64,000 bases of DNA, taken from a virus. Lineage: Duplodnaviria; Caudoviricetes. Positions 19,861-51,842 of the stretch are shown here, one piece after another. The DNA lies in IMG/VR virus record IMGVR_UViG_3300033978_000217, positions 1,818-65,817 of that record; one strand, 5' to 3'. The translations under genes were made by a program, and so were the position numbers. How positions within the stretch are numbered: the stretch's first letter is position 1; each line of letters opens with the position of its first letter. The notes beneath the pieces were generated by a model. The model had not been told where the DNA came from, did not search any database, and was given only the letters and a program-made list of their open reading frames with translations.

Positions 19861-22800
19861 ATGGCAAATTTACAAGACCTCTTTAACGAAATACAAGCTG
19901 ACTCTAGAATTTCAAATCCTCCTACATTTGAAGAGTTTCAATCAAAAATGGAAGACCCTGCTTTTGCAGAAAGAGTTAATGAAATATTAGGTAGAAACGG
20001 TTACGATGTAAACGCTTACGAAGGCTTAAAAAAAAAAGAGGAGTCTATGGTCGAATCTGCTCCGCTATCTCAGTCGGAATCAGAGCAGCCAAGCGAGACT
20101 ACAGAGCCAACCCAGATGGGTGGTATTGAGCCTGTAGGGGAAGTTGTAAGTGAAGATCCACAAGCAGAAACAGAAGAAGATTTAGATCCGTTAAACGCGG
20201 ACCTTTCTGCATATAACTTAGAAATTAAAACCCCTCTTTCTTTAAATCAAAACGCTCCAATACAAGCTGCTCCTCAACAACAAAATGTGACGGAAGGTTC
20301 AGTTATGAACGAGTCTTTAGATACTCCTAAGCCTGTAAATAAATACAAGAACAACGACATTATTAGTTTAGCCAAGAACGCTAAAAATAAGTTTATAAGC
20401 AAACATATAGACCCTATTTTTTCTCAAGCTAAACAAGCTACGGCTCAATTTGATCAAGAGATTAAGCCTGAAGAAGAAGCTATTTCTCAAGTTGAAGAAG
20501 GAGGCCCAGGAGACCCAAAAAGAAAAGATGTTAAAGATGCGGCAACCTCTCTATACAACGAGATGGATGACCTTAACTACAAAACAGCTTCTAGAGTGTT
20601 AGGTGACACTCGTGTTCTTGGTGTTAAAATGGATGGAGATAACTACGAGGTTGTTTTCGCCAACAACAAGATGGGTGGTGGTGACCAAGGAAGGTCATAT
20701 AAAGGCAAGGTGGGAGATGTTACATGGGAAGGTTATATTAGCAATGCCATTAACTCATCAGACCTTTATAAAGACGATGAGTCTTGGGAAGACTTGAAGA
20801 GTGCTGTTATTACTCAAGACACATATTCTCCAGAACTAGAAGGTAAAAAATTATCGCCAAGTTTTAATAACAATTTAGCCTCACATAAATCAAAATATTT
20901 CCCTCAAGGAAGTTTTGGTCAAATTACAGGCACCGTAACTATTCCCAAGGAAAAAAATAAGGAAGAAGAGGCTTCTTTTGGTACTGATCTAAAGCGTTTT
21001 TTTGAAAAGGTTAAGGTTAAAGTTAAGACCCAAAACATCATAAGTAAAGAGGACGAGGAAAGGAAGGAATATAACATCGCTGAGGAGACTATTCCTAAGA
21101 CGGAGTATGTGATGGACACCGAGCAAACTTTCTACAACAGCCTTAACAATACTCCCGAGACAAACGCTATAATGCAGGAGAACGCCCTTAGCTTTAGCGA
21201 CATTTTACTCCCATCAAGTAAAAACAAAGAGACTGTGATGGAGGGCATCAAATTGTTTCTTGCTAAGGCTGGTTATGATGAAAATGAAATCAATCAAAAG
21301 TTAGGTGTTATATACAAGCAAATGTTGCGTGACGCTAGATATCATGCAGCGGAGCAATACATTAGACATGAGATTGAGAACGGAAATAAGACATATAAGT
21401 TCCAAGACATTGACCGCTTAAACCAAGCAAAAGAAAAGGGTATAGACGAGTTAATGGGTGACGAATCTTTGGTGACCCAGTCTGACAAAAACTTTGTGTC
21501 CAATGTTTGGGACATTAGTTTGTCTGACTATATTAACCACTACGATGCTAAGGCAACGGTACGAGGTCGTAACATGGACATTAAAAACATCCCGGGTAAA
21601 GTGTCTGCCTACACCGCCCGAATGAATGAACTAGAGGCTCAAATAGAGGCTGAGAAAGTTAAACTGCAAATCCCTTCAAAGGAGCAGTTGTCAGAGACGG
21701 TGAAGGGTCTTAAATCAACTAAGGATAAAATTGATGCTTATGACGCTCAGTTGTCTAAAATGGAAGAGGATATGAACTCTCTTCTTGTAGATCAGGACGG
21801 TCAAAAGTATTATAAAGACGAGGCTTCAAAAACAATATACGAAGAACTTGTCGCTCAATCAGAAAAAATTTTAAACGAAAGAAATGCCTTAGTAGAACAA
21901 AACAAGGCCGGGTCTCAAGACATTGAAAAGGTAAACCAATTCCAAAACAATATTTCTCGCCAATTAAAAGAGTATGAGGCTCTAAGAAAAAAACTTAATT
22001 ACTACGATGATGACCCAGACTTGTTAGCAATGAGAGGGTTGTCAAACACGTTGACTTCTATTCAAAACTACGAGAGCGATAAATCAGCAGGAATAAAGAA
22101 TGACTTGTATGACTTCCAAGACTACAGAGAAAAGGTAAGACAAGATGACGAAATCGCTAGAAAAGAAGCCGAGGATGATAATATGCTAGAGGCTGGTGGT
22201 AAAGGACTAGTGGGAGGTTTTGCTAACGCTCTTATTGGCATCTCAAAGACAGGTATGTACTTAGGTCAGGTGTTAACTGACGAGGACTCGGATCAGAAGG
22301 AATGGACTGGTGGTGATGAGTTACTAGCAGCTACAAGTCAATTGCAAGAAAACGTAGGGCAATGGGCATCTAATCCTTACTATGAAAAATGGGGGGTAAA
22401 TTGGTTTGTAAATGGTGTGGGAGGGGTAGTACCTGACTTAGCAGCTGTTTATTTCACAGGCGGTGGTGCTGGATTTGCAGAACTAGCCACTACAAGGGGA
22501 GCAATAGGAGCTGTAGGTAAAATAGCTACTAGTCCAACAACCGTTTACTTTACAGTAAGATCTACAGGTGACTATGCTGAAAGACTGCAAAAGGCAGGGT
22601 ATTCTGCAGGAGAGGCTTTTTTAGGCGGTGGGTTAATTGCAGGTACGGAAGCAATGTTAGAAAGTTTGTTGCCTTCATTTTTTAATACAACGGAAAGCAT
22701 AAGCATTAAGTCTTTTTGGAAAAAAACAATAGAAGAGGGTATTGCTAAAAAACTAGCACCTGAAGTAATTGCTCGTCAACTTAAAGAGGGTACTATCGGT

Positions 22801-25800
22801 ATAGCTAGAAATTCTGGGAAGTTAATAACTACAAACACATTTAACGAAAAAATTGAAGAGGGGACTCAAACTTTATTTACAGAGGTAGCTTTTGCCGGAG
22901 CAACAGATGAGACCATCCAAATATTTGACCCTAAGACAGGGGGCATGGGAAAGACACTTGAGGCTGTTACAGAGGCTTCTGCTATAGGTGGGGCAATGGG
23001 ACTTGTTGGGTCTAGTGCAAAGGGTATAAGAACCTTAATAAAAGAAAAGGCTAACAATACGACATTAAAGTTAACCCAGTTACAGATTGGAAGGAAGTAC
23101 ACCGAAATCATTAATGAAGCGGATAGACTTTCAAAAGATTTTAAAGGGTCAGAGGTAGAAAAGGAATACGAGAAGATTAATAAGGAGTATAAAAAACTAA
23201 GTGCTAATCCAAACTTTTTAGAATATGACGACTTAGCTCAGTCAGAAGTTTTGGACAAGTCACTTGCTTTAAACGATTTAAAAGAGGCTCAAAAAAACTA
23301 CGAGAGCCAAAATATTGTAGACGTTAAACTTAACAATCAGATAGCAGAAAAAGAAAAAGAGTTAGTCTCTATCATTAACACCGCACAGGAAAATACTGAC
23401 GTTCGTAATGATATGAACAAACAGTTGGAGGAAATTGGCGTTAAGTCTTTTACATTAAATGCTAACGGAGAAGTCAACGGAATTACGTTTGATGAATGGA
23501 CAACCTCAGAAGAAGAAAAGGAAAGTACAGAAAAGGCTATCGAAATAATAGAAAAAGTATATAAACCAAAAGCACAAGAAAATGCCGTACAAAAGTCAAG
23601 CGCAACAGAAGTTCTTCCACGCCAACAAGGCGAAACTACAGAGACAGGGGGTAAACGTGAAGGAGTGGGATCAAGCGTCCAAGGGCAAGGTACTACCCAA
23701 GAAGTTGGGAAAGAAGAAATAGTAGCGACTCCCAAGGAGGCGAAAGAACCGGAGGCGATGCAAACTGACATCGACCAAGTTCAGCAGTCGACAGGCACTG
23801 TTATTAATTTAAACGAGGACGGAACTCTTACTATCAACGCCCCTCAAAGAGGTGGTCAGTCTAAAAAAGCTGCGGCCATTGAGAACGCTAAACAAGAGTT
23901 GGCAAACCTCGGGTATAACGTAGAGAGTCGAGTTGCACAACCTACGCAACAAGAAGTTGCACAAGAGGAAGGACAAAGAGAATTTACAGACGAAGAGTTT
24001 GGAAATACTATAAAGGAGACTGAGGGTATGGGCGTAGTAGCAGGAACTCAGTCAATGAATGACTTGCAGAAAAGAACTGCTCAAGATCCTAAGAAGGGTA
24101 AGATTGTTGCCCAAGCTTCTCGCGCAGTTAATGCACTCAAGTCCCTCTTCCCGAACATGAACATTGTTGTACACGAAAGTGATGAGTCGTACAACAAGGC
24201 TATGAACACTTTGGGAGGTACTGTAAATACTCGTGGTCAGTTTGTTTACAAACCTTCAGCGGACGGAAACATCCAAGGTGCTGTTCACATTAACTTAAAC
24301 AGAGCGAACTCAAGAACAATTGCTCACGAGGTTGCTCACGCTGCTCTCCTAAAAATGTTTAAGGGAGACGGAAAGGTGTTCGGAAACTTTAAAGACAAGT
24401 TAAAAGACATCGCCAAGGACCAAAAGATGACCATCACAGACAAGGATGGCAACGAGGTAGAAACTACATGGGGAGATGAGGCAGAGAAGTTATCTAGCAG
24501 ATATCAGACAGAGGATCAGGCTGAAGAATACTTGGCTGAACTTGCAGGTCTTGTTGCAGAGTTAGATTTAGATAAACCAGTTAACAAAAGCATACTTCAG
24601 AAGATTGCTGACTTCATCAACAACTTTATCTTGAGTAACCCTCAACTAAAGGCACTAGGAGTAAAGCCAATCAGCGACACATCTTCTGCGGAAGAGGTGT
24701 TAGAGTTCTTTGACACTCTTGGTAAGAAGATATCGAGAGGAGAGGAAATTAAAGAATTTGAAGATGTAAACTCTCTTGGTCTTAGTGGTGTAGTTAATGT
24801 GTCAGAGGGTGTTAAGTCTAAAAGTTCAATAGACTCTGGTGAGATAAAAAGGTTTCCTGTCAACCCAAACACAAGGGTTGAAGAGGATGTGCCTTTAGAA
24901 AGATTCAATGGGAAAAGAGTTAACCTAATGGAGTCGGATCGAATGACAGGCGGTTACATAAGCGACTCTGAAGGCAACCCCTTGTTCAAATTTTATGGAG
25001 GCGTATTCTACCCTATAATTACAGGAAAGTGGTGGGCCTCAAGAAACAAAATAAAGGCAAAAGGCATCGCTGAAAACGCGAATAAAAATAGAGACAAGGA
25101 CGGATATATTTACTCCGCGCCTATGATCGGGTCTGACAAACAGCATATGAGCAACACAGATATGTTGACTGTAACTGTTGAGCTAATGAAGTTTGACGCC
25201 AACTCAAAAACATCTAAGGTTAAAAAGGCTGACGTTATAAGTTACATAGACAAGGCTTTTAGCAACAAGAGTGTCCAGGGTAAAAAGGCTGTTGTGAAAA
25301 CCGTTTTGAAAAAGTCAAACAATATAAACGAACTATTTAACGAGTTAGAGTTTGTGTTATTCCAAGAGGGGGATAAGATATTAGACAAGAAAGGAAGTCC
25401 GATATTAGACGAAAATAAAAAGCCGATATCAAACTTTACGTTTGAGGAAAGACTAGCTATAGTTAATTCTATTTTAGGAGACCCGAAAGTAAAAGAGGCG
25501 AGATTTCCTTCAGCAGGGTCTATATCAGAGGCAGCTAAAAGGTTTGAAGAGCCTATTACGGCAAAGGCTAATAAGATAGGTGACTTGGTTACCATAATGA
25601 GAACTAAAGGCACTTTACAATATAAAACATCCGAGGTTAATGATGACTTTTATCACAAGTCTTACCCGGAAGAAATTTATGCCGTTAATGAGGACGGGTC
25701 TCCTGCCGAGATTGAGGTCTATGTTTTAGAAGGTGCTTACAGCATGAACGATGTTTTACCCTCTTTAACTCAATCTAGTGGAAAAGAATTTACTTGGGAC

Positions 25801-28800
25801 GAGTATTTAGAGAAACACAAGTCTGAAAATTTAGCAATAGCTCAATACAACAGGACAGCCAAGTTAAGTAGTGCGTCTGGTGAAATCAAGACAGGCGTTA
25901 AGACAAAGTCTCAAATGGATGACGTTCAGCGTACAGCGCAGATGTACAACATGAACGATCAGGGATTCTTCCCAAAGAACGCTGACGAGTATAAGATCAA
26001 CAGAGACTTTGAAAGATTTGGCTTAAAGGCAAAGAGAGCAAACGCTTCTAGTTGGGGACCGGGTTCTCTCTACCTAGTTAACCAAGCAGGAAGAAAGGTT
26101 AATCCATTTAACCGACCTAAAGGTAAATCTCAGTTGTCGGATGATGAAGTTGATCAAGTTTTGAAAACATATCCTGATCTAAAAACAACTCAAATTGTAG
26201 ACGAGAATGGTAATCCTTTAATAGTTCGTCACCAAAGTCAGACAGATATTGATATTAATAATATGTCTGATAAAAACAAGGGAGGTATAAGAGACATCCT
26301 AGGTAGAGAGTCTAAAGATAAATACGGAATATATTTTACTACAGAAAGTGCAGAGTCGTTGAAAGATATGTTTGACAAGACTGGTAAGGGTAAAACATAT
26401 GAAGTGTTTTTAGATGTCAAAAATTTATTAGACTTAGGAGACACTCATTACTTTAATTTTGAAACAAACAAGCCTGAGCAACTATCAGATGCTGTTGTAA
26501 AAAATTCTGATCAATATTTAGATGTAAGAGATATGTCTAAAAATGATGTAGATAGAGTTAAAGCTTTGGGATATGATGGTATCTGGGGTAATAGAAACGA
26601 AGGTAATTATAAAGGAATAGACGAGATTGTTGTATTTGACAAATCTCAAATCAAGCCTGTTCCAACAGGAATAGTTGCCAAGTCTCAACTTTCAGATGAA
26701 GAGTCAGAGCCAAATCAAATCAGCAGTAGTGAACGTAAAATTATTGCAGATAGAGTTAAGGCTGAAATTAAAGCTGCTCTTCAAGGCCGTAAGGAAGGAA
26801 AAAAAGAGGGGATAGAACAAGCTAAAGAACAAGCTCAAAAAACTATCGACTCTTTAAACAAGAAATTAGAAGAGGGCAAGATAACTAAACAAGAGTTACA
26901 AGACAAAATTAAAGAGCTTGGATACAATGTGAGATGGCAGGCGGCTGAAGCAAGACTCGCTGGGGAAATAGAAGGTAAAAAAGCAGGTCGTGCAGAGGGT
27001 CGTAAAGAAGGTATCAAAGAGGGGGTAGAAAAGGGTAAAGAACAAGCGCAAAAGACTATCGATGCGTTGAATAAAAAACTTGAAGAAGGTAAAATAACTA
27101 AACAAGAGTTGCAAGACCGAATCAAGGAGCTTGGTTACAACATTCGATTTGAGGCAGGTGTTGCTAGACTTGCAGGAGAGAGGACTGGAAAGTCTATGGG
27201 TAAGAAGTTCGGAGAGTTTGTTGGTTACTTTAAAGGACTGAAGGCAGGAAGAACAGAACAAAGAGGTTTAGGTGCTTTGGTATCTGAATATATCAAAGAT
27301 GTAGTAGACAACGAGTTTGGTAAGAAGGGTTCTATCTCCCCTGCCACATTGAAGTCTATCTCTCGCAGAGCAGCTACCATCTCTAACCAAAAACAATTGG
27401 ATGCCTTTGTTTCTTACTTAGATAAGATCATTGCCAACAGAAGATTGGCAGAAGGAATCAATGAAATCCAAAAACAACAAAAGAAGTTGTTGAACAAGAT
27501 TGGTTATCAGTATACAACACAAATGAAGCAGTTTGCGAAGTTTGATTTGTATACAGCAGATGGTGACTTGGCTTTTGACATGAACACTTTGGAAGAATAC
27601 TTAGACGCTCTTCGTGATTTAACTAGCGATAGAGTTCCTAAGATTGGCAAGATGATGGAATTGTTTGATGAAATGTATGACATCAATCTACAGAACCAAC
27701 CTGCACCTAAGACTGCAATTGACTCACTTAATGAATGGCAAGTAGCAGTAAATAAGTTGTTTAACACCGCTAAGGATATCATCGTTGAAAACAACGGAGT
27801 AGTTGACCTAGCCGAATCGTTTCAAAACTATAGAGCGTTTAAATCTAATGTAAAGAAATACACAAACGCACTTGATGAGTTATTAGTCACAGGCATGATT
27901 AGCGAATCTGACTATGAAAGGATGTTTAATGATGTTATTGAAAAATCTGCTGTTACAGATACTTACGCTACTGAATTCCAAGACCAGATAGATGGGTTGA
28001 AGAAGATGCTGATAGACGGTATCACAGACAAAGGTGACTATGGGTTAATGGATTCAATCAAAGACTGGTTGAGCAACTCTCCTAACACATTTACGGAAAA
28101 TCAAAAGAAATTGATTGACCAGTTAATGAGAGCAAAACCTGATAATTTGATGACGTTAAGTCTTGAAGACCTTGACTTGTTAAATCAAGTTACTGCTCAA
28201 ATTGCAGAGGCTGGATTTGTTGACGAGAAGAATTTAAGAACCTTGTTGGATCGTGCAGAAATCAGAGGCAACGAGATCGGAAAGAGTTTGGCTGAACAGG
28301 CTAAACAAACAAAAGGCTTGTTTAGAAAAGATAGATACTCTAACGCTAAGAACGGATTCATCAACATGATGAATGACACCTTAGGAAAGAGTGTTGTATT
28401 CTGGGAGTCTCGTCTAGGAATGAAAGAGAACGGTCCGTTTAGAAAGCATTTAGTAGACCCAATCGTAAGGGCAATTAATGGATGGGAGAAAGACTCTCAA
28501 CGAATTCTAAAGGACTACCAAAAGAATGTTGAGAAACTTAGAAGCCGAAACATTTTAAAGAATGTTCCGGGTATTGGTAAGTTTATCAACAAAACTAAAA
28601 TTGAAAAGTTCAAACTAACCTCTGACGGAAATTTAGTGCCTGACGGAACAATTAAAGTTTCAAAAGACGCTTATGACAGAGTAATGATTGGAGTTGTTGG
28701 CCACATCCTTGACAACGCTTGGAACGCCAAACAGAAAAAGAAAACTGTAAGCGACTGGTTAGGTAAGCAGATGCTTAGTGCTAAGGTGAGAAACAACATG

Positions 28801-31377
28801 GCTAACGAAGACGTTAACGAGTTGGATATTGTTAACAACATCTACAACGACCTTAAAGATTCATTCCCTGACGGAAATGGAGGCCTTGACCACATGGCAG
28901 TTTTAGAAGCGTTTGAATCTGATCCAACTTCTGTCCTTACAGGTAGTCAGTTGGAGTATTATAACATTGCAAGAAGCACTTTACAGGAGGCTGGTGAGTA
29001 CATCAATAGTGCTAACGCAATTAGAAACAAGCAGCACGAGTTGAATCCTTACTATATGCCTAGGCAGTCTGTAGGAGTAAGAGAAGGCACTCTAACATCT
29101 ACGGATATTGCGTACAATAAAAATGTGGGTGAGGCAATAAGATCAGGGGCGTCTTACCAACGTGTGTTGCAAGTTCCTACAGAGGCAATTCGTTATAACG
29201 TAGACAGGCTTGTGATGACCAATGTTCATGAAGGTTTGAGAGACTACTATTTGACTGAGGCTAAAAGATATGTGAGAGATGTATTCTCTAACGCTAAAGA
29301 AAACGCTAGTCAAAACGATGCGGTTATGTTAGACAACTTAAAGCAGTTGAGTGACACTATTGCTCCGTTTGCTTTAGCAAAGTCTGAAAACACATTTGGA
29401 TTGTCAAAAATGATGGGTAAGTTCTTTGTTGACGCTTTGATAGGTGTTGTAAGAACTCCAATAGAATTTACTACTAACCTTATCAGTTATGCGGTAGGTA
29501 ATAGAAGTTTAAAGTCTTTGACATTGCCTTTCACTCCAAAAGAAAAACAAGAGACAGATAAATTATTGTCTGAGTTTGATTCTTCAGTTCAGTTTACAGG
29601 ATTGGAAAGAAAAGTTAAACTTAGTGGCAAGAAAGGTATTGACGGATACTTGGACAGAGAAAGTAACTTCGGTTTGCTCAACAAGTTCCTCAACAACGTA
29701 ACTGGGTTTATGAGAAAAGGGGAATGGAAGTCTCAGTTCGAAAGAGAGTTTGAAAGAAATACTGGAGAGAAGTTTAGTTACGAGAAACATTTCGTAAAAG
29801 AAAAAGGAAAGTATTACGATGAAATGAGCAAAGCTGCTTCGGATGCTGACTTCAGAATGAGAAGAATTATGAAGGGTGGTAACAAAGCAGAGCAAAGACA
29901 ATTCATTGAATGGTTTCCTTTTGTAAAGTCCGCAAGAATTTCTGCCGACTCTAAAATGGCACCGTTTGTAGGTATGTTCTCTGGATTTATTAACCACGAT
30001 GCTGACAATCTTAACATCGGTTTAAGAAAGACTGTTACTCAAAAAGAAATAAAGGATGGTTTAACTCAAGCGTTAGGTGCTTACGGAAGGTTGTCTTTAT
30101 ACCCTGTGTTGATGGTTATAGGAAAGGCTATTGCTAATTTAAACTTGGGTGACGATGATGAGAAGAAAGAGGCTCAAGAAACATTAGACTCATTGAAGAC
30201 ACCTCAAGGTTGGTCAGACATGGCTTTGTTTGCCGCTAAACAAGTTGGGGCAACATTTTTTGGAGGTAAGTATGCGGCAGGTGGTAAGATTATAGGAAAC
30301 CTACTATTAGACGCTGCCTATACTTTAAGTGATGACAGAAGACAGAGAAGACTAATAGAAGACACAATGAGAGATTTATACTTTGTAGATCCGATTGACT
30401 TTTATGACTTACCTTCTGAAAAGGATGACATGGCTTTGCAAATAGCTGCTAATCTTCAACCTATCGTGGGGATGGTCATTGACGGTGTTTCTGACTTTGT
30501 TAACGATGTCAAGAACAAAGGCAGAGAGCAAGTTACTCTTTATGACATCTACGAGTGGACTCAACAAACTGAGGAGGGTAAGCAATGGATGTACATGGCA
30601 AATTCTTTAGCTACATTAGGTCAAACTCTAACAGTCATATTTACACCCGGAGCAGTACCTTTTATTGATGACTATGTTCGTTGGGCAGAAGATGAGTTGT
30701 CTCAAAAAGAGCCAAATGAAAACACTCTATACAAAACTCCTGGTGGTGAAGTAGTAGACATAAGAGAACTATTTTTAGATGACAGCCAAAGACTGCCTAT
30801 TAATACTCCTGGGATAAGCTCAAGAGAGAGAGATAAGTATTCTATATTGGCAACTGAAAAGTTTAACAAGGCAATTGAAAAGGAAGGAAAACAAATAAAA
30901 GGCTTATTCCCTGACGAAAAGTATTTGTACATAGACTATCTCGCAGACAAGGCTAAATACGAGGCTGGTTCTGAACTAGGATTTCCGACTGAAAGATGGA
31001 GTGAGGCTGAAGGGGAAATGGTTTCAGGAGAACCTATTCCACCAAGTGAGAGAGATAACACGCCAGAAAGTGAGGTGACGTTAGAAAAACTTCATCAGGA
31101 AATTATGAAAGGAAAACAACTTAGCTTTGTTCAAAACATCAAAGAGAAGAGAAAAGCCGAAGACTATATGTTCAAGGAGTTTGATAAAAATCCGAACATG
31201 GAGAACGACTATAAAAACGCTACTATTGGTGGAAAGTTAGGTGTGAGAGAGTACTTCAAGGCAAAATACTTATACGACAAATACAAATTAACCGAACCTC
31301 CTGTTTCATCTAACTACTTTATAAAAGAAAAAGGTCAAATAAAACAGGTTGAAAGTACGCCAACAGAAGAAAATTAA
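19861..31377 (+). CDS. Giant polyvalent-type virion/ejection protein with zincin metallopeptidase and ADP-ribosyltransferase-like domains
   Basis: About 3840 aa. HEVAH (24325-24339) with downstream EEYLAE. VRH..GIYFT..YEVFLD..GYDGI..EIVVFDKSQIK (about 26190-26660) fits the ART-PolyVal pattern. Confidence 0.7.
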   Translation: MANLQDLFNEIQADSRISNPPTFEEFQSKMEDPAFAERVNEILGRNGYDVNAYEGLKKKEESMVESAPLSQSESEQPSETTEPTQMGGIEPVGEVVSEDPQAETEEDLDPLNADLSAYNLEIKTPLSLNQNAPIQAAPQQQNVTEGSVMNESLDTPKPVNKYKNNDIISLAKNAKNKFISKHIDPIFSQAKQATAQFDQEIKPEEEAISQVEEGGPGDPKRKDVKDAATSLYNEMDDLNYKTASRVLGDTRVLGVKMDGDNYEVVFANNKMGGGDQGRSYKGKVGDVTWEGYISNAINSSDLYKDDESWEDLKSAVITQDTYSPELEGKKLSPSFNNNLASHKSKYFPQGSFGQITGTVTIPKEKNKEEEASFGTDLKRFFEKVKVKVKTQNIISKEDEERKEYNIAEETIPKTEYVMDTEQTFYNSLNNTPETNAIMQENALSFSDILLPSSKNKETVMEGIKLFLAKAGYDENEINQKLGVIYKQMLRDARYHAAEQYIRHEIENGNKTYKFQDIDRLNQAKEKGIDELMGDESLVTQSDKNFVSNVWDISLSDYINHYDAKATVRGRNMDIKNIPGKVSAYTARMNELEAQIEAEKVKLQIPSKEQLSETVKGLKSTKDKIDAYDAQLSKMEEDMNSLLVDQDGQKYYKDEASKTIYEELVAQSEKILNERNALVEQNKAGSQDIEKVNQFQNNISRQLKEYEALRKKLNYYDDDPDLLAMRGLSNTLTSIQNYESDKSAGIKNDLYDFQDYREKVRQDDEIARKEAEDDNMLEAGGKGLVGGFANALIGISKTGMYLGQVLTDEDSDQKEWTGGDELLAATSQLQENVGQWASNPYYEKWGVNWFVNGVGGVVPDLAAVYFTGGGAGFAELATTRGAIGAVGKIATSPTTVYFTVRSTGDYAERLQKAGYSAGEAFLGGGLIAGTEAMLESLLPSFFNTTESISIKSFWKKTIEEGIAKKLAPEVIARQLKEGTIGIARNSGKLITTNTFNEKIEEGTQTLFTEVAFAGATDETIQIFDPKTGGMGKTLEAVTEASAIGGAMGLVGSSAKGIRTLIKEKANNTTLKLTQLQIGRKYTEIINEADRLSKDFKGSEVEKEYEKINKEYKKLSANPNFLEYDDLAQSEVLDKSLALNDLKEAQKNYESQNIVDVKLNNQIAEKEKELVSIINTAQENTDVRNDMNKQLEEIGVKSFTLNANGEVNGITFDEWTTSEEEKESTEKAIEIIEKVYKPKAQENAVQKSSATEVLPRQQGETTETGGKREGVGSSVQGQGTTQEVGKEEIVATPKEAKEPEAMQTDIDQVQQSTGTVINLNEDGTLTINAPQRGGQSKKAAAIENAKQELANLGYNVESRVAQPTQQEVAQEEGQREFTDEEFGNTIKETEGMGVVAGTQSMNDLQKRTAQDPKKGKIVAQASRAVNALKSLFPNMNIVVHESDESYNKAMNTLGGTVNTRGQFVYKPSADGNIQGAVHINLNRANSRTIAHEVAHAALLKMFKGDGKVFGNFKDKLKDIAKDQKMTITDKDGNEVETTWGDEAEKLSSRYQTEDQAEEYLAELAGLVAELDLDKPVNKSILQKIADFINNFILSNPQLKALGVKPISDTSSAEEVLEFFDTLGKKISRGEEIKEFEDVNSLGLSGVVNVSEGVKSKSSIDSGEIKRFPVNPNTRVEEDVPLERFNGKRVNLMESDRMTGGYISDSEGNPLFKFYGGVFYPIITGKWWASRNKIKAKGIAENANKNRDKDGYIYSAPMIGSDKQHMSNTDMLTVTVELMKFDANSKTSKVKKADVISYIDKAFSNKSVQGKKAVVKTVLKKSNNINELFNELEFVLFQEGDKILDKKGSPILDENKKPISNFTFEERLAIVNSILGDPKVKEARFPSAGSISEAAKRFEEPITAKANKIGDLVTIMRTKGTLQYKTSEVNDDFYHKSYPEEIYAVNEDGSPAEIEVYVLEGAYSMNDVLPSLTQSSGKEFTWDEYLEKHKSENLAIAQYNRTAKLSSASGEIKTGVKTKSQMDDVQRTAQMYNMNDQGFFPKNADEYKINRDFERFGLKAKRANASSWGPGSLYLVNQAGRKVNPFNRPKGKSQLSDDEVDQVLKTYPDLKTTQIVDENGNPLIVRHQSQTDIDINNMSDKNKGGIRDILGRESKDKYGIYFTTESAESLKDMFDKTGKGKTYEVFLDVKNLLDLGDTHYFNFETNKPEQLSDAVVKNSDQYLDVRDMSKNDVDRVKALGYDGIWGNRNEGNYKGIDEIVVFDKSQIKPVPTGIVAKSQLSDEESEPNQISSSERKIIADRVKAEIKAALQGRKEGKKEGIEQAKEQAQKTIDSLNKKLEEGKITKQELQDKIKELGYNVRWQAAEARLAGEIEGKKAGRAEGRKEGIKEGVEKGKEQAQKTIDALNKKLEEGKITKQELQDRIKELGYNIRFEAGVARLAGERTGKSMGKKFGEFVGYFKGLKAGRTEQRGLGALVSEYIKDVVDNEFGKKGSISPATLKSISRRAATISNQKQLDAFVSYLDKIIANRRLAEGINEIQKQQKKLLNKIGYQYTTQMKQFAKFDLYTADGDLAFDMNTLEEYLDALRDLTSDRVPKIGKMMELFDEMYDINLQNQPAPKTAIDSLNEWQVAVNKLFNTAKDIIVENNGVVDLAESFQNYRAFKSNVKKYTNALDELLVTGMISESDYERMFNDVIEKSAVTDTYATEFQDQIDGLKKMLIDGITDKGDYGLMDSIKDWLSNSPNTFTENQKKLIDQLMRAKPDNLMTLSLEDLDLLNQVTAQIAEAGFVDEKNLRTLLDRAEIRGNEIGKSLAEQAKQTKGLFRKDRYSNAKNGFINMMNDTLGKSVVFWESRLGMKENGPFRKHLVDPIVRAINGWEKDSQRILKDYQKNVEKLRSRNILKNVPGIGKFINKTKIEKFKLTSDGNLVPDGTIKVSKDAYDRVMIGVVGHILDNAWNAKQKKKTVSDWLGKQMLSAKVRNNMANEDVNELDIVNNIYNDLKDSFPDGNGGLDHMAVLEAFESDPTSVLTGSQLEYYNIARSTLQEAGEYINSANAIRNKQHELNPYYMPRQSVGVREGTLTSTDIAYNKNVGEAIRSGASYQRVLQVPTEAIRYNVDRLVMTNVHEGLRDYYLTEAKRYVRDVFSNAKENASQNDAVMLDNLKQLSDTIAPFALAKSENTFGLSKMMGKFFVDALIGVVRTPIEFTTNLISYAVGNRSLKSLTLPFTPKEKQETDKLLSEFDSSVQFTGLERKVKLSGKKGIDGYLDRESNFGLLNKFLNNVTGFMRKGEWKSQFEREFERNTGEKFSYEKHFVKEKGKYYDEMSKAASDADFRMRRIMKGGNKAEQRQFIEWFPFVKSARISADSKMAPFVGMFSGFINHDADNLNIGLRKTVTQKEIKDGLTQALGAYGRLSLYPVLMVIGKAIANLNLGDDDEKKEAQETLDSLKTPQGWSDMALFAAKQVGATFFGGKYAAGGKIIGNLLLDAAYTLSDDRRQRRLIEDTMRDLYFVDPIDFYDLPSEKDDMALQIAANLQPIVGMVIDGVSDFVNDVKNKGREQVTLYDIYEWTQQTEEGKQWMYMANSLATLGQTLTVIFTPGAVPFIDDYVRWAEDELSQKEPNENTLYKTPGGEVVDIRELFLDDSQRLPINTPGISSRERDKYSILATEKFNKAIEKEGKQIKGLFPDEKYLYIDYLADKAKYEAGSELGFPTERWSEAEGEMVSGEPIPPSERDNTPESEVTLEKLHQEIMKGKQLSFVQNIKEKRKAEDYMFKEFDKNPNMENDYKNATIGGKLGVREYFKAKYLYDKYKLTEPPVSSNYFIKEKGQIKQVESTPTEEN
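23582..23722 (+). CDS. Nested out-of-frame small basic protein (46 aa)
   Basis: MPYKSQAQQKFFHANKAKLQRQGVNVKEWDQASKGKVLPKKLGKKK* in the +1 frame of the giant gene, with an A-rich leader. Confidence 0.7.
   Translation: MPYKSQAQQKFFHANKAKLQRQGVNVKEWDQASKGKVLPKKLGKKK
26785..27210 (+). repeat. Tandem 213-nt (71-aa) duplication inside the giant gene
   Basis: GRKEG..KEQAQKTID.LNKKLEEGKITKQELQD.IKELGYN..ARLAGE occurs twice, starting at 26785 and 26998. Confidence 0.85.
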
Positions 31378-34284: not shown

Positions 34285-37104
34285 ATGCCAATTACTAATA
34301 ACCTTAAAAAGCAAATTGACCAGCCTGTATGGGAGTGGTCTAGGTTTGCTTTAACTACCTTTAACTCTCCAGCATCAGGTTTTGCTACAGCAATAGATGG
34401 CTCAAATAGATATATCTATTATCAATACCCTGGTACCTTGCAAAGATATGATACTTGGAGTGATACTTGGGCATCTTTAGCAGCCCCAGCATATTACACT
34501 ACAGCTACAATAGCTTCAATGGTTTATTGTAAATCTCAAGGAAATAGAGGTAGAGTATTAGCAGCCCCAACAAGTTCTACATTAACAATCCCTTCTCTTA
34601 TTTCTGGCGCTAAATTAGTTGGACAGAAAATCAGAATTGTATCAGGTGTAGGATCAGAACAAACTAGAACCATTACCGCATCTACTGATCCTGTAACTGT
34701 AGAGTCTGGAGTTAACATAGGATCAAGTTCTGCTACTATTCTTCAAGACACTACAAAAAGATGGCAAGTAAATCAATGGGTTGGTTACACAGTTAGAATT
34801 TCTTATGGTACAAACTTTTCTTTTCAAAGAACAGTAATATTTAATACTGTAGATAGTTTGTATTTTTCAGACATAAACTTACAACAATATGAGCCATGGG
34901 ATAACCAAGGATTTATTTCCTCTCTTTCAGGTACGTTTTCAACTTATGAAATATCATCTCAAACTGTAACTGTAGACACTCCTTTTGTTACAACTCCTAC
35001 TACAGATAGTAGATTTATGATAATGTCTGGAGTTATATGGTTGATGTCTTCACAAACAACTTCTGGATTTACATGGCAAATGTATGATGTACTTACAGAT
35101 GTGTGGTATCAAAAGTCAATGCCTTCTACTATATTTAGTGGTGCTGTGGGTACAGAGATAGCTCTTACCCCAATCGATGAAGTAGAAGCTGCGTATATTT
35201 CTAGTACTGCAACATCTGCTACAAATAGAAGACTTACAGACACGACTCAAATGATGGTTAACGATCAATACCGCAACTATCAAATCAGATTAACAGGCGG
35301 CACAGGAGCAGGACAAAGAAGAAGAATTACATCTAATATAGACAGAACATTTGAAGTAGATTCTAAATGGACAGTAACTCCAGACGCTACAACGACTTAT
35401 GAAATATGGCCTAATACAGACTACATTTATTTTGTTGGTAATGCTAATGCTGCAACCTTTGCTTATGACATGGAATCAGATGTATGGGTAACTGGTCCAA
35501 GTAGTGATGCTTCTGTTGCTACAAATGCTTCTATAACTAAAGTTGGAGATATACCATTAGGTATTGCTTCAGCAGCGGATAATGGAACAGGGTCTGTACT
35601 AACCGTTGCTGTAAATGCAGTAGGGTCTGGATATGCGGTTAATGATATTATTGCAGTATCTGGAGGAGCCGCAAACTGCCGTCTTTATATTACATCAACT
35701 ACTACAGCAGGTGGTGTTACAGGAGTGGCATTTAAAAATAATGGATCAGGGTATGCTACAGCAACTGGATCAGTAACTTCAATAGTTTCAGGATCTGGGT
35801 CAGGATGCACAATTAACATAACTGCTATTGGAAGAACAGGTTTGGTTACAACTACTATAAATCATTTTCTTAAAAGAGGAGATTCTGTAACTATAGCAGG
35901 ATCTTCAGTAGCAGGATGGAATGGCACTTACACAATTTTAAGTGTTGATACTAATCTTACATTTACAATTGCTAGTACAGCTACAGCAACTCTTAATGCT
36001 ACATCAGCAAATAGTACAACTTTAGTAGTAGATTCTACAAAATCTTGGGATGTAAACGAACACCTAGGGAAGTTCTTAATGATTATGCAAGGTGGTAGTA
36101 TTACTCCTAACCAACAAATAAGAAGAATTACTTCTAATACAGCAACGACTATTACAATCCCAGCTTTTACATCTTTTACCCCTACTAGTGGAACAACTCG
36201 TTATGTAATTATAGATCCTTCTAGTTTTGGGAGAGATAATAAATTCTGGGCAGATGATCAATTAGCCTACGGATATCCAACAAGTGGAACTACAACTTCT
36301 ATTACAGACACAACTAAGAACTGGATTAGAGGAACATGGGTAGGTCACGTTGTAAGAATCATGGCAGGAACAGGACTTGGAAATGAACTCGTAATTACGG
36401 CAAATAATAATAACACCATTACATTTGCTGCCGCTACATTTACTCCAGATACTACTACTCGTTATGCAATAATGGATAGTTTTGGGACAGCAACTTCAGG
36501 TTCTACAACTACTCTCGTAGACACTGGAAAGAACTGGGTTACTAACCAATGGGTAGGTAAACGTGTTAGGTTTGTTGGAGGAGCATCTGCTTCTAACGAA
36601 GTTACTATAACATCTAATACGGCTACAACACTAAACTTTGCTGCAACTACTGCAACCGATGCTACTACCAATTATGTTATTTACGGTCCTCCTGCAAGAG
36701 GTGCTGGGGCTAACGTCAAATGGACGTGGGGTAATGGAAATCATAAATATTTATTTGCCCCAATTGGTGGGGGTAGTTTAGGGGTAAGTAAATTTGATAT
36801 TACAACAGGTAGATGGGATAGCTATTATCAAAACTCTGGGCAAGGTGAAACTTTCACTACAGGATCTATGTGGGCATACGATGGTGCAGATAGAGTTTAT
36901 GTTCAAAAAGATCAAACAGGACGTATTTTTTATTTTGATATTGTTAAAAGAGAAATGGTAAACTCTGGTACTGTGCCTTACGGTATGTCAACAGCATTTG
37001 TAGGAAATAGAATGGAGATAATTAAGACAGAAGATGGTCTCAAATATCTTTACGTTGCAAGACATAACGGAACTGAAATGTGGAGAACATTAATATTTTG
37101 GTAA
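34285..37104 (+). CDS. Repeat-rich fibre/receptor-binding-like virion protein
   Basis: Thr-rich, with about six repeats of DT.K.W..NQW.G..VRI..GTG..R.I.SN and propeller-like termini. Confidence 0.6.
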   Translation: MPITNNLKKQIDQPVWEWSRFALTTFNSPASGFATAIDGSNRYIYYQYPGTLQRYDTWSDTWASLAAPAYYTTATIASMVYCKSQGNRGRVLAAPTSSTLTIPSLISGAKLVGQKIRIVSGVGSEQTRTITASTDPVTVESGVNIGSSSATILQDTTKRWQVNQWVGYTVRISYGTNFSFQRTVIFNTVDSLYFSDINLQQYEPWDNQGFISSLSGTFSTYEISSQTVTVDTPFVTTPTTDSRFMIMSGVIWLMSSQTTSGFTWQMYDVLTDVWYQKSMPSTIFSGAVGTEIALTPIDEVEAAYISSTATSATNRRLTDTTQMMVNDQYRNYQIRLTGGTGAGQRRRITSNIDRTFEVDSKWTVTPDATTTYEIWPNTDYIYFVGNANAATFAYDMESDVWVTGPSSDASVATNASITKVGDIPLGIASAADNGTGSVLTVAVNAVGSGYAVNDIIAVSGGAANCRLYITSTTTAGGVTGVAFKNNGSGYATATGSVTSIVSGSGSGCTINITAIGRTGLVTTTINHFLKRGDSVTIAGSSVAGWNGTYTILSVDTNLTFTIASTATATLNATSANSTTLVVDSTKSWDVNEHLGKFLMIMQGGSITPNQQIRRITSNTATTITIPAFTSFTPTSGTTRYVIIDPSSFGRDNKFWADDQLAYGYPTSGTTTSITDTTKNWIRGTWVGHVVRIMAGTGLGNELVITANNNNTITFAAATFTPDTTTRYAIMDSFGTATSGSTTTLVDTGKNWVTNQWVGKRVRFVGGASASNEVTITSNTATTLNFAATTATDATTNYVIYGPPARGAGANVKWTWGNGNHKYLFAPIGGGSLGVSKFDITTGRWDSYYQNSGQGETFTTGSMWAYDGADRVYVQKDQTGRIFYFDIVKREMVNSGTVPYGMSTAFVGNRMEIIKTEDGLKYLYVARHNGTEMWRTLIFW

Positions 37105-37111
37105 AGAAACA

Positions 37112-37144
37112 TTTGGAAATACAGAATTAAGTTTTGTATATTTG
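37112..37144 (+). promoter_or_regulatory. Canonical Bacteroidota promoter
   Basis: TTTG(37112)-N21-TATATTTG(37137). Confidence 0.75.
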
Positions 37145-37148
37145 TCAT

Positions 37149-37226
37149 CATTGTTTTATCTTTCATAGATTTATTGATTATTGATTTAAGGGCAGATAAG
37201 GGGGAGCAATCCTCCTTATTTGTTTT
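37149..37226 (+). ncRNA. Candidate ~78-nt antisense-type small RNA
   Basis: Bounded by the promoter and the hairpin ATAAGGGGGA-GCAA-TCCTCCTTAT+TTGTTTT. Its U-rich body is complementary to early-gene start regions. Confidence 0.55.
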
Positions 37227-37239
37227 AAACGCAACGCCA

Positions 37240-37659
37240 ATGAAATGCCAAGCCGAAGAGTGTTTTTGTACGGATTTTAACCGTACATTCTGTAAAAACT
37301 ACAGAGAGGATGCGAAGCCTAAATCACAAGGTCTCAAGAGAACTCAGTTCAAGAAAAAGTACAAGGCTACTGGCGAGATGGATCTATTTAAACATCTATG
37401 GGAGACTCGCAAACATCGTTGTTACGTCACAGGAAGGGAGTTGGAGTTCTCTCCATCAATCTGCTTCCACATCCTTGGTAAGGGAGCGTTTCCTGCCTAT
37501 CGTCTCAACCCTTCAAATATCATCTTTGTCAATGCGGAGTACCACACAGATTGGCACACAATGTCGAGAGAGAAATTGGTGCAGAAGGATCGTAGATGGG
37601 AGTACGTCTTCAAACTCTACGAGATGTTGAAGATTGCGTACTACAGCGAAGGTTTATAG
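37240..37659 (+). CDS. HNH-like (NinG/Ref-type) nuclease
   Basis: N-terminal Cys cluster; CYVTG..HILGK..YRLNPSNI..H. Confidence 0.55.
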   Translation: MKCQAEECFCTDFNRTFCKNYREDAKPKSQGLKRTQFKKKYKATGEMDLFKHLWETRKHRCYVTGRELEFSPSICFHILGKGAFPAYRLNPSNIIFVNAEYHTDWHTMSREKLVQKDRRWEYVFKLYEMLKIAYYSEGL

Positions 37660-37837
37660 TGTGGTTCTTGCACAGCCTGATCTGATTAGAGTCGAAGTGT
37701 TTTATCTCTCCAGTCTCCTCCAAGGCTACCACCCACACAGTATTATTCTGCATTCCGTAGTCCATGAGGAATAGAGCAATTCCGTCACCTAACTCCGTCT
37801 CCACCCAAAGCACTTGTTGTATTTCATGTATATTCAT
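37610..37837 (-). CDS. Hypothetical protein
   Basis: 75 aa (T.LGDG.ALF..DYG..WVV); a minus-strand TAAATTTG lies just upstream. Confidence 0.6.
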   Translation of the reverse strand: MNIHEIQQVLWVETELGDGIALFLMDYGMQNNTVWVVALEETGEIKHFDSNQIRLCKNHTINLRCSTQSSTSRRV

Positions 37838-37838
37838 C

Positions 37839-37866
37839 GTAACAAATTTAGGTGTATATTTGTTAC
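37839..37866. promoter_or_regulatory. Back-to-back divergent -7 elements
   Basis: GTAACAAATTTA-GGTG-TATATTTGTTAC, with TAnnTTTG on each strand 4-5 nt from an ATG. Confidence 0.6.
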
Positions 37867-38157
37867 ATGAGAAATTCTTTAGCAGGAACTAAAAAAGGCA
37901 AATCAGAGAGTGCCAAATACTTTCAGTCTAATCCAAAGGCGAAGGCTAAGAAAGATGCGTATAACAAGGAGTATCATTCTACTCCCGAGAGACGGAAGTA
38001 TCGTTCAGAACTGAACAAAGAGAACCGAAAGGCTGGAACTTACGGCAACAAGGATGGCAAAGACATGAGCCATACGAAATTAGGTAAAGTTGTCAAAGAA
38101 ATATTTTCAAAAAATAGAGCTAGAAACGGAAAAGGCGGTACTCCACGTTTGAAGTAA
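37867..38157 (+). CDS. Small basic protein with a degenerate HNH-like motif
   Basis: K/R-rich; DGKDMSH..NRARNG. Confidence 0.6.
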   Translation: MRNSLAGTKKGKSESAKYFQSNPKAKAKKDAYNKEYHSTPERRKYRSELNKENRKAGTYGNKDGKDMSHTKLGKVVKEIFSKNRARNGKGGTPRLK

Positions 38158-43668: not shown

Positions 43669-44154
43669 TTATTTATTGATTTCGATTAATGTTCCGTCCG
43701 CTTGTTCTTCGTAGTAGTAGTCACTATCTTCAATGTCCCATTCAGTATAGTAGTACTCGTCTTGGGCATAGGCTTCTTCTAGAAGAAATTCGTCAGATAG
43801 TTCGTTGTACTCGTCAACATTTCGGTCTCTTAACCACTTAATCAAGTCAGATGTGTTCACGAAGTATGCTTCTCCATCGTTGCAACAATATCCTCTATCC
43901 ATCCCCTTCCCAGTTGCAGAATCTTTTCTCGCCCACTTGATTTTTACATCTTTGAGCATATTGTATTGCTCCAAGGTAAGTTCCATATAGTTCGCCCATC
44001 CTTGTGCTTCCTCTAGCAATGTGTTTGGATGTTCAGACGAATCGTAAACATATAAACCACCTTCTCCTAGGGATATCATTTGAACAACGGTGTTATGGTC
44101 ATTGTCCCACATATGACTAACTACTTCCTCTCCGAATAAATAATAGAATTTCAT
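43669..44154 (-). CDS. Acidic early protein (DNA-mimic candidate)
   Basis: D/E/Y-rich C-terminus; AAAACAATG start. Confidence 0.65.
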   Translation of the reverse strand: MKFYYLFGEEVVSHMWDNDHNTVVQMISLGEGGLYVYDSSEHPNTLLEEAQGWANYMELTLEQYNMLKDVKIKWARKDSATGKGMDRGYCCNDGEAYFVNTSDLIKWLRDRNVDEYNELSDEFLLEEAYAQDEYYYTEWDIEDSDYYYEEQADGTLIEINK

Positions 44155-51199: not shown

Positions 51200-51595
51200 T
51201 TAGAAAGAGTTAGTTCCTTTTCTAGCTTCTCTTCTTACTGCACGAGCAAACTTCATCCCATTTCCAGTAGCCTTTGCACTTTGAACTTTTTCAGTGTCAT
51301 ATTTTTTAGGGTTTCTGTTATATTCTTTTAAAGCTTGACTTACCTTCTCATTTTTCTTCATGGCAATTTTAGAGTTCCCAAGTTTTCTATCTACCTTGTT
51401 CTCTAGCATTTTACCTGCAAGTGATCCGCGATCTTTAAATGATTTTTTTTCAGATATTACTCCACCGCTTTTAGAGTATACTGTACGAGTTTTAGATACC
51501 GCCTCATTTCCTGAAGCGTTTCTGTTTACTACTACTTTTCTACCTAAAACGTTTTTTCTTGATGTGGTAGTTTCTCTTTTAACTTTGATGCCCAT
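51200..51595 (-). CDS. Lys/Arg-rich protein (RKNxLGR family)
   Basis: Start MGIKVK; promoter TTTGTATATTTG at 51627-51638 on the minus strand. Confidence 0.65.
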   Translation of the reverse strand: MGIKVKRETTTSRKNVLGRKVVVNRNASGNEAVSKTRTVYSKSGGVISEKKSFKDRGSLAGKMLENKVDRKLGNSKIAMKKNEKVSQALKEYNRNPKKYDTEKVQSAKATGNGMKFARAVRREARKGTNSF

Positions 51596-51641
51596 GGTTG
51601 TTTTGTATTTTATTATTAATAATACACAAATATACAAATCA

Positions 51642-51842
51642 TCACTTGTCTCCCAAAATTTCTTTGAGTTGAGAGAAGATATCTGTCTGCGCCTGTCCCC
51701 AGAAGAAATCGCAAGTTCCGTCCTCCTTGATTGGAGGCTTTTCAAAGTAGGCTTGAGCGTACTCATTAATCGGTGCTGTAAATCTATGGCACTTCTCTTT
51801 GTGGGGACAATTTGTCCCTTCGCACATTGTTATATCACTCAT
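51642..51842 (-). CDS. Small Cys-rich protein
   Basis: MSDITMCEGTNCPHKEKCHRF..CDFFW. Confidence 0.65.
   Translation of the reverse strand: MSDITMCEGTNCPHKEKCHRFTAPINEYAQAYFEKPPIKEDGTCDFFWGQAQTDIFSQLKEILGDK

Follow-up and report, generated by a model that had tools for sequence, protein, structure and literature searches.

At the junction between the two gene blocks in the genome of a Bacteroidota phage from lake water, a promoter is followed by a short leader, by a strong terminator-like hairpin and only then by a gene. What is such an arrangement for? It could release a short RNA acting on other transcripts, as the initial annotation proposed when it read the locus as a small RNA antisense to the start-codon regions of the early genes, or it could govern the gene directly behind it.

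The window, i.e. the whole 64,000-nt stretch of DNA that was analysed, corresponds to bases 1818-65817 of a virus record that is 65.8 kb long and carries direct terminal repeats. Genes were called by simple ORF rules. Structural genes occupy the plus strand from 145 to 37104 and include one frame of about 3840 aa, while small early genes and replication genes lie on the minus strand between about 54.1 kb and 38188. The promoter-terminator unit sits where these convergent blocks meet and fills the 135-nt gap between the stop of a 939-aa gene (37104) and the ATG of a 139-aa gene (37240). The 139-aa gene is followed by a 96-aa gene (37867-38157, plus strand) and then by a minus-strand RusA-like gene. 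The features of the locus are listed below.

34285-37104, plus strand: upstream 939-aa gene (ORF), the last large gene of the structural block
37112-37115, plus strand: -33 element TTTG, found by motif pattern (pi 0.000 among 25 distinct relatives)
37137-37144, plus strand: -7 element TATATTTG, lying inside GTATATTTG (37136-37144; pi 0.035)
37149-37163, plus strand: variable 5' leader including the predicted start, with the seed CAUUGUUUU (pi 0.257)
37164-37189, plus strand: conserved unstructured U-rich segment CAUAGAUUUAUUGAUUAUUGAUUUAA, with tandem UUAUUGAUU (pi 0.039)
37190-37195, plus strand: variable linker, lower part of the extended stem (pi 0.248)
37196-37219, plus strand: core hairpin from folds, 10-bp stem (37196-37205 with 37210-37219) and loop GCAA (37206-37209)
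37220-37226, plus strand: T-run TTGTTTT, from the terminator scan (pi 0.137)
37227-37239, plus strand: spacer to the start codon (pi 0.217; 13-25 nt in relatives)
37240-37659, plus strand: 139-aa gene for a putative HNH/NinG-like nuclease (36 homolog loci; Cys/H-N-H core)

The 939-aa gene, for which 13 relatives were found, appears to be mosaic and receptor-binding-protein-like or fibre-like. One relative (L003) is 100% identical to the window on both flanks of this gene and only 59-90% identical inside 34380-36980. Where a relative of the 939-aa gene occurs without the nuclease gene, a promoter still follows it, but no hairpin does. Matching DNA was found in lake-water metagenomes from three studies. 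Among four RNA runs, compared at 85% likeness, one contained a 2075-nt assembled contig spanning the whole unit region, and another a contig of a relative carrying a different leader. In a third RNA run, from one study, a 210-nt contig (37025-37230) stops just past the T-run; assembled contigs cannot show transcript ends.

The promoter and its predicted transcript

By its motifs, the promoter is of the Bacteroidota sigma-A (host) type. According to PMC6847099, the Bacteroidota consensus consists of a -33 TTTG and a -7 TAnnTTTG, and transcription in Flavobacterium johnsoniae starts 4-5 nt past the -7 element. The unit carries TAnnTTTG (n not G) with a TTTG upstream, within the usual distance of about 19-21 nt; the spacer between the -33 TTTG and the -7 TATATTTG is 21 nt. 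Applying the start rule places the predicted +1 at C37149 or A37150, so that the RNA would begin with CAUUGUUUU and would measure about 78 nt to the end of the T-run. Among relatives, the two promoter elements are near-invariant (pi 0.000 and 0.035) and the spacer between them is free to vary (pi 0.232).

The same motifs recur across the window. TTTG-N17-21-TANNTTTG matches 10 times against 2.45 expected, and GTATATTTG occurs in 7 copies against 0.83 expected, a count reached by 0/100 shuffles. Five of the six other GTATATTTG copies stand 4-25 nt before a same-strand ATG (17694, 19861, 37867, 53715 and 54768), with predicted leaders of 0-13 nt, and the remaining one (51635-51627, minus strand) falls within a called gene. 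The copy in the unit lies 95 nt upstream of its ATG and is the sole copy with a 91-nt, terminator-containing leader. In the rest of the genome a terminator usually comes first and a promoter after it, as at 42825-42796 and 42659-42629 on the minus strand.

The terminator hairpin

The full hairpin (37190-37225) folds at -24.1 kcal/mol with a z-score of -4.0, and 0/200 shuffles fold as well. It has the G+C-rich stem, the short loop and the U-run directly behind (UUGUUUU) of an intrinsic terminator. The stem arms are strongly constrained (pi 0.039 and 0.016) and the loop much less so (pi 0.163), with GCAA, GAAA, GUAA and GUGA all present among relatives. Both-sided, compensatory changes affect 5/10 consensus stem pairs, and the hairpin forms in 11/11 folded variants (8/8 and 3/3) that together represent five different stem sequences. 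The T-run is interrupted in one lineage (TGTGTTTCT). Promoter and terminator are each far beyond chance.

No promoter motif is present in the 13-nt spacer (37227-37239), and no conserved alternative, antiterminator-type fold was found across the folded variants. A pairing of CUUUC/UUUCUC with the 5' arm, noticed by eye, was discarded as an antiterminator: it is weak, G-U-rich and not conserved.

A conserved unpaired segment within a variable leader

For the selection profile, 25 distinct sequences whose proteins share 91% identity or more were compared, and the codon positions of the nuclease gene (pi 0.064, 0.027 and 0.309 for positions 1, 2 and 3) provide its internal scale. On this scale, the 15 nt of 5' leader evolve neutrally, near codon position 3, and most relatives carry CAAUGUUCAAUUGUUUC in place of the CAUUGUUUU region. 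Conversely, the 26-nt segment behind it, which begins with CAUAG and contains UUAUUGAUU twice, is constrained like codon position 2 (0.039 vs 0.027). Furthermore, the centroid folds of 8/8 variants leave this segment unpaired. Being constrained yet unpaired in every centroid fold, it is probably read by its sequence and not by its fold. Its core, UUAUUGRUU, is retained down to 41-57% protein identity. No Rfam family matched at the gathering threshold anywhere in the window; at E-values up to 10 the best score was 15.6 bits, where the family thresholds are 39-90.

The gene behind the terminator

The ATG of the 139-aa gene lies 13 nt past the T-run. Its product conserves four N-terminal cysteines and an H...N...H core, and no substitution of C3, C8, C18, H77, N93 or H102 occurs among 17 sequences that reach down to 30% identity. 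The protein had no Pfam match. PHROG profiles for HNH and endonuclease VII families matched weakly: phrog_12434, 'HNH endonuclease', matched 11/11 members with a best E-value of 0.0027, and matches were firmer for remote relatives (P0043, 7e-06; P0145, 6e-05). Using tblastn, we recovered remote homologs in Bacteroidales phages at 25-35% identity, annotated by their depositors as NinG recombination protein or HNH endonuclease. A profile search found 1076 representative clusters; close clusters number only 14, all of them unnamed. Together these similarities suggest an HNH/NinG-like nuclease, and its position beside RusA is consistent with a recombination or branch-cutting nuclease.

Linkage of the unit to the putative nuclease gene

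We found 36 homolog loci of the 139-aa protein in IMG/VR (55-100% identity). The promoter, U-rich leader, hairpin, T-run and ATG are present in 35/35 of those having upstream sequence, with TAnnTTTG exact in 32 and one mismatch in the other 3. The genes upstream of the unit differ among these loci because the fibre-like 939-aa gene is mosaic. A search of the viral contig collection with an 18-mer of the leader returned 56 matches, of which 55 were examined: 28 bear the hairpin and have the gene behind it (28/28), and the other 27 are unrelated chance matches. No copy of the unit apart from the nuclease gene was seen among these 55. When prokaryote genomes, one for each species, were searched for an exact 21-mer of the conserved segment, the 12 matches were all chance or low-complexity. 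A metagenome scan yielded 23 loci, 12 of which were read; their variants include one with a single repeat and a GUGA loop.

These comparisons bear out the description from which the initial annotation started, namely a canonical promoter and a terminator-like hairpin bracketing about 78 nt, with all parts in place; they also answer its call to look for the same arrangement in related phages, where it is found in 35/35 loci. Its idea of a discrete small-RNA unit holds to the extent that promoter, constrained 26-nt stretch and terminator are conserved together, but fails in that the unit never stands free. The annotation had counted it against a small RNA if the segment were only a 5' UTR of the gene at 37240. 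Since the nuclease gene lies directly behind the unit everywhere (35/35 loci, 28/28 matches), the unit is also the 5' leader of that gene.

Beyond the close family, in a lineage at 41% protein identity, the U-rich stretch is kept and a hairpin lies 20 nt ahead of the ATG, with no TAHHTTTG within 500 nt upstream. The lack of a nearby promoter in this lineage suggests that the pair of U-rich stretch and hairpin also works inside a longer transcript. In cultured Bacteroidales phages, the genes of remote homologs are packed closely into operons: they have no leader, and they overlap the neighbouring gene or stand 3-4 nt from it. The leader is therefore not a general requirement of the nuclease protein family. 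Searches with P0016 and P0021 returned no more distant loci. One relative (G001) carries the cassette in inverted orientation with respect to both gene blocks.

A mobile homing cassette had first been suggested by the stretch 37037-38036, where identity to a relative reaches 92-99%, compared with about 78% overall. This reading was dropped: synteny of the gene is kept throughout the family, what differs upstream are fibre genes that have been exchanged, and homing is not needed.

Proposed function of the unit

We propose, with moderate confidence, that the unit is the 5' leader of the nuclease gene and that its order of promoter, terminator and gene limits that gene. A host-type sigma-A promoter would start transcription at about 37149/50, and the polymerase would cross the 15-nt freely evolving and the 26-nt conserved single-stranded stretches before reaching the strong terminator at 37196-37226. 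For most transcripts this would be the end, giving a U-rich RNA of about 78 nt. At the convergent junction, the structural operon upstream would be closed by the same terminator. The nuclease would be expressed by read-through past the terminator and, because its gene has no promoter of its own, only in this way, so that the level of a potentially harmful enzyme would be kept low or conditional. An attenuator-type order (promoter, terminator, gene, and no promoter past the terminator) is found in 35/35 loci.

The 26-nt stretch could be a regulator site, recognised by an RNA or by a regulatory protein, for which the nuclease itself is one possibility; the partner may act as a protein on RNA, as a protein on DNA or as another RNA. 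Whereas the anatomy of the unit, its conservation, its selection profile and its gene linkage are direct results of the comparisons above, we infer from them that the promoter is active, that termination is efficient, that expression depends on read-through and that a partner exists.

A constrained single strand before a terminator is also the build of a base-pairing small RNA, and a trans-acting role of the short RNA is possible. In its broadest form, which we consider unlikely, the RNA of about 78 nt would be a phage regulatory RNA whose UUAUUGAUU repeats bind the A-rich leaders of early phage or host mRNAs that lack a Shine-Dalgarno (SD) site (AAYCAAUAA type), or a host factor recognising leaders of this kind, and the nuclease would be a read-through passenger.

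Complementarity to early-gene start regions

Bacteroidota translate from SD-less, A-rich start regions and, to our knowledge, Bacteroidota hosts mostly lack Hfq. The initial annotation had listed seven plus-strand strings complementary to the proposed RNA, and all seven are present at the positions it gave, which are minus-strand gene starts or junctions. To compare the complementarity with chance, we computed duplex energies, which do not take target accessibility into account, for the leader and for dinucleotide shuffles. Against 36 early start regions of the window, the mean duplex energy was -11.79, compared with -9.31 +/- 0.67 for the shuffles, 0/300 of which were as low. The start regions of the 31 plus-strand genes showed no such effect. 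With a different gene set, the window leader gave a z-score of -2.4 against early start regions. Leader and early start regions share 13 8-mers where 6.3 are expected (p=0.006), and for shared 7-mers and 6-mers there was no significant excess. The string matches thus exceed chance modestly, in 8-mers and duplex energy, but not in 7-mers or 6-mers. TTATTGATT occurs exactly six times in the window, twice in the leader and four times at early-gene junctions.

This signal is uneven among relatives. The leaders of four relatives gave z-scores of -1.36, -1.19, -1.69 and -0.19 against early start regions, and that of G001 gave -5.3 against its own. Since the cassette of G001 is inverted and its leader is still complementary, strand composition cannot explain the complementarity there. 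In contrast, G005, whose leader is identical to that of the window, has no k-mer excess (8 shared 8-mers vs 9.4) and no TTATTGATT outside the unit. For the 26-nt segment alone, z-scores against early start regions were -2.82 (window), -1.01, -1.71, -1.74 and -4.06 (G001), compared with +0.46, +0.47, +0.73, -0.23 and -1.79 against windows inside the same genes and +0.21, -0.67, +1.66, +0.57 and -0.40 against late start regions. The reversed 26-nt sequence equals or beats the real one in 2/5 genomes. In a cross test, the leaders of the window and of G001 each performed best on their own genome. The genomes compared are related and amount to about two independent lineages.

Composition accounts for much of this. 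Of the AAYCAATAA occurrences, 14/25 fall in sense start windows, compared with 7/21 for the reversed control, from which it follows that the signal mostly reflects how A-rich and G-poor start regions are; the motif as a dedicated start-region signal was weakened accordingly. The best leader-target duplexes consist of 11-12 A/U-rich pairs. In a genome-wide scan of 5 genomes, start regions contributed 1-2 of the top 12 sites in each, and none was conserved or outstanding. The complementarity to start regions is largely compositional.

These results leave the proposal of one RNA occluding many early starts without an outstanding or conserved target in the five genomes. The pairing that it predicted beats shuffles in the window, but is weak in relatives (z-scores of -0.2 to -1.7), and the first of its two anti-AUG seeds, CAUUGUUUU, belongs to the neutrally evolving part of the leader and is replaced in most relatives. 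Our literature search found no small RNA from a Bacteroidota phage aimed at start regions, which does not prove absence.

Alternative explanations

That the RNA of about 78 nt pairs in trans with the A-rich, SD-less starts of early genes and blocks their translation is, in our judgement, distinctly unlikely. The duplexes outdo 300/300 shuffles with no effect on plus-strand genes, the 26-nt segment gives negative z-scores in 5/5 genomes (-1.0 to -4.1) with controls near 0, complementarity persists in G001 despite the inverted cassette, and four TTATTGATT copies stand at early-gene junctions. Against these points weigh the unconserved CAUUGUUUU seed, the missing k-mer excess in G005, the small z-scores of the other relatives together with a reversed control that does as well in 2/5, the mostly compositional AAYCAATAA effect, and a top 12 with only 1-2 start regions, none of them conserved. 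Moreover, the promoter is of the type that early promoters likely have, an odd timing for the silencing of early genes. As no convincing phage target emerges, the host remains: the short RNA might act in trans on host transcripts or RNA-binding proteins while the nuclease rides on read-through, as in a StxS-like dual-use leader. A strong promoter of its own, a conserved single strand of 26 nt and a terminator with a U-tail would suit such an RNA, and StxS is a phage RNA from promoter-proximal termination that has gained a function in trans (PMC7547250). However, among the loci and matches examined the unit never occurs apart from the nuclease gene, and the exact 21-mer found only its 12 chance or low-complexity matches in prokaryote genomes (one per species); we regard this explanation as unlikely.

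The 26-nt stretch may instead act as DNA, either as the operator of a repressor (e.g. in nuclease autoregulation) or as a second, phage-specific promoter, whose starts inside or after the hairpin would escape termination and give late nuclease. The constraint on sequence and not on structure would fit, as would the 6-nt variable linker between the stretch and the core stem, and T4 nuclease genes use late starts inside a hairpin and I-TevI uses operator autorepression, according to PMC2988022. Yet no second copy of the motif lies in sense orientation upstream of any other gene in the window; TTATTGATTTARG with at most two mismatches occurs 14 times against 8.2 expected, and outside the leader no match is better than two mismatches. 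The 7-bp tandem spacing would also be unusual for DNA-binding dimers, and we judge action as DNA decidedly improbable. The simplest alternative denies the unit altogether: the hairpin would be the terminator of the structural operon, the promoter motif incidental, and the anti-start appearance due to the start of a 38-aa gene on the minus strand, given that the reverse complement of the leader resembles a start region, with AAATCAATAATCAATAAATCT followed by ATG. This is very improbable, as the -33 and -7 elements are near-invariant while their spacer evolves freely. The minus-strand small gene (37166-37050) was rejected as a gene, for its frame has 38 aa in the window but 4 in most relatives and 7 in G001, and the G002 type lacks it. 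An N-terminal extension of the nuclease on the plus strand, from the TTG at 37174, was likewise rejected because the frame is closed in relatives by a stop and by frame-breaking indels.

The reading of the unit as a nuclease leader has its own difficulties, namely that no antiterminator fold is conserved and that remote homologs in cultured Bacteroidales phages do without the leader.

Significance and comparison with known systems

Almost nothing is known of gene timing in Bacteroidota phages or of RNA-level control in this SD-independent phylum. The unit is a clean, conserved and uncatalogued combination of a promoter-proximal terminator and a constrained single strand, present in about 30 lake-water phage contigs, and offers a handle for the study of attenuation, of nuclease control and of possible small-RNA action. 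If it were a regulatory RNA, it would represent an RNA-based translation switch in Bacteroidota; if it merely throttles the nuclease, it is an ordinary solution, known from T4 and lambdoid phages.

The idea of shutting off early genes at their start regions has a precedent in T4 RegA, which represses the translation of early mRNAs and is a protein, unlike the short RNA considered here. Bacteroides has base-pairing small RNAs which, in a dRNA-seq map, are reportedly free-standing genes with mapped transcripts and targets. Like the unit, they have their own sigma-A promoter, a conserved single-stranded region and an intrinsic terminator, whereas the unit, with its predicted transcript, is joined to the gene behind it in every locus examined.

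With the lambdoid PR'-tR' short transcript (6S RNA) and its Shiga-phage form StxS (PMC7547250), a phage promoter is likewise closely followed by an intrinsic terminator, an abundant short RNA of about 74-78 nt is the by-product, and the downstream genes depend on read-through; StxS can also act in trans. The promoter-proximal leader is neutral here (pi 0.257), where Q-type systems need conserved sites, and no Q-like protein was found among the 8 neighbouring proteins scanned. Furthermore, the gene behind the terminator is one small nuclease gene and not a late operon.

Nuclease genes of T4 are likewise held down by terminators or hairpins: PMC2988022 describes internal terminators in mobE and segF and hairpins before I-TevI, segB and Aeh1 mobE. 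As in the unit, a terminator or hairpin lies in or before the 5' end, with read-through or in-hairpin starts, but those hairpins sequester the Shine-Dalgarno site or sit within the coding region. Here, a conserved unstructured stretch leads into a full terminator, with the SD-less start 13 nt further on, and the gene is syntenic.

Protein-dependent attenuation offers a further parallel to the nuclease leader that we propose. Although no antiterminator fold of the unit is conserved among the folded variants and no candidate RNA-binding regulator was recognised, points in which it differs from such systems, the TRAP/trp, PyrR, HutP and LicT leaders consist of a promoter, a repeat-built single-stranded binding stretch, a terminator and a gene, which is the same order of elements as found here.

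Promoter copies and the 96-aa gene

The features considered here, from the 3' end of the 939-aa gene (34285-37104, plus strand) onward, are as follows.

37037-38036: block comprising the leader, the nuclease gene, the gap and the start of the 96-aa gene
37610-37837, minus strand: 75-aa ORF, a frame in the stretch 37660-37866
37854-38157, plus strand: 96-aa gene and its promoter; phrog_6437 (function unknown)

The Bacteroidota-type -7 promoter element GTATATTTG ends 4 nt 5' of the ATG of the 96-aa gene (37854-38157). Since transcription starts lie 4-5 nt after the -7 element in Flavobacterium johnsoniae (PMC6847099), the predicted start site is the A of the start codon, and the mRNA would be leaderless by this rule. 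A functionally unassigned gap of 207 nt (37660-37866), 95-98% identical to the related locus L004, separates the nuclease gene from the 96-aa gene; a search for a family match to the 75-aa minus-strand ORF found none.

An exact copy of GTATATTTG with TTTG upstream was also found on the minus strand at 51627-51635, within the called gene 51200-51766, and may represent an internal promoter or a miscalled start of that gene. In the structural block, a GTATATTTG promoter precedes a single frame of approximately 3840 aa (19861-31377).

Recurrence of leader motifs

AAUCAAUAA occurs on the plus strand at 43673, 45138, 46549 and 47475, four successive early-gene junctions, 8-25 nt 5' of the start codon. 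In the relatives, AAYCAAUAA was found at different junctions and twice immediately behind a promoter (genomes G003, 54319, and G005, 15766). These occurrences may reflect a start-region signal or composition alone. In two Bacteroidota MAG contigs (L128 and L133), the 21-mer from the conserved leader segment has chance matches to a low-complexity tandem array of ATTGATT repeats turning into CTGGATT and other heptads.

Possible module exchange around the leader

The 1-kb block 37037-38036 is 92-99% identical to the related loci L004/L017, with flanks of that relative at just 52-80%, suggesting either that the block was exchanged recently or that it is under strong constraint. In the distant relative G001 (loci L059-L061, about 16970-17500), the entire leader and nuclease cassette is inverted; there the early block, with its RusA end, precedes the cassette, which points toward the structural block. 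Within the 939-aa gene, 34380-36980 shares 59-90% identity with the related locus L003, with both flanks at 100%. This gene is a swapped module, its pattern being typical of receptor-binding protein exchange.
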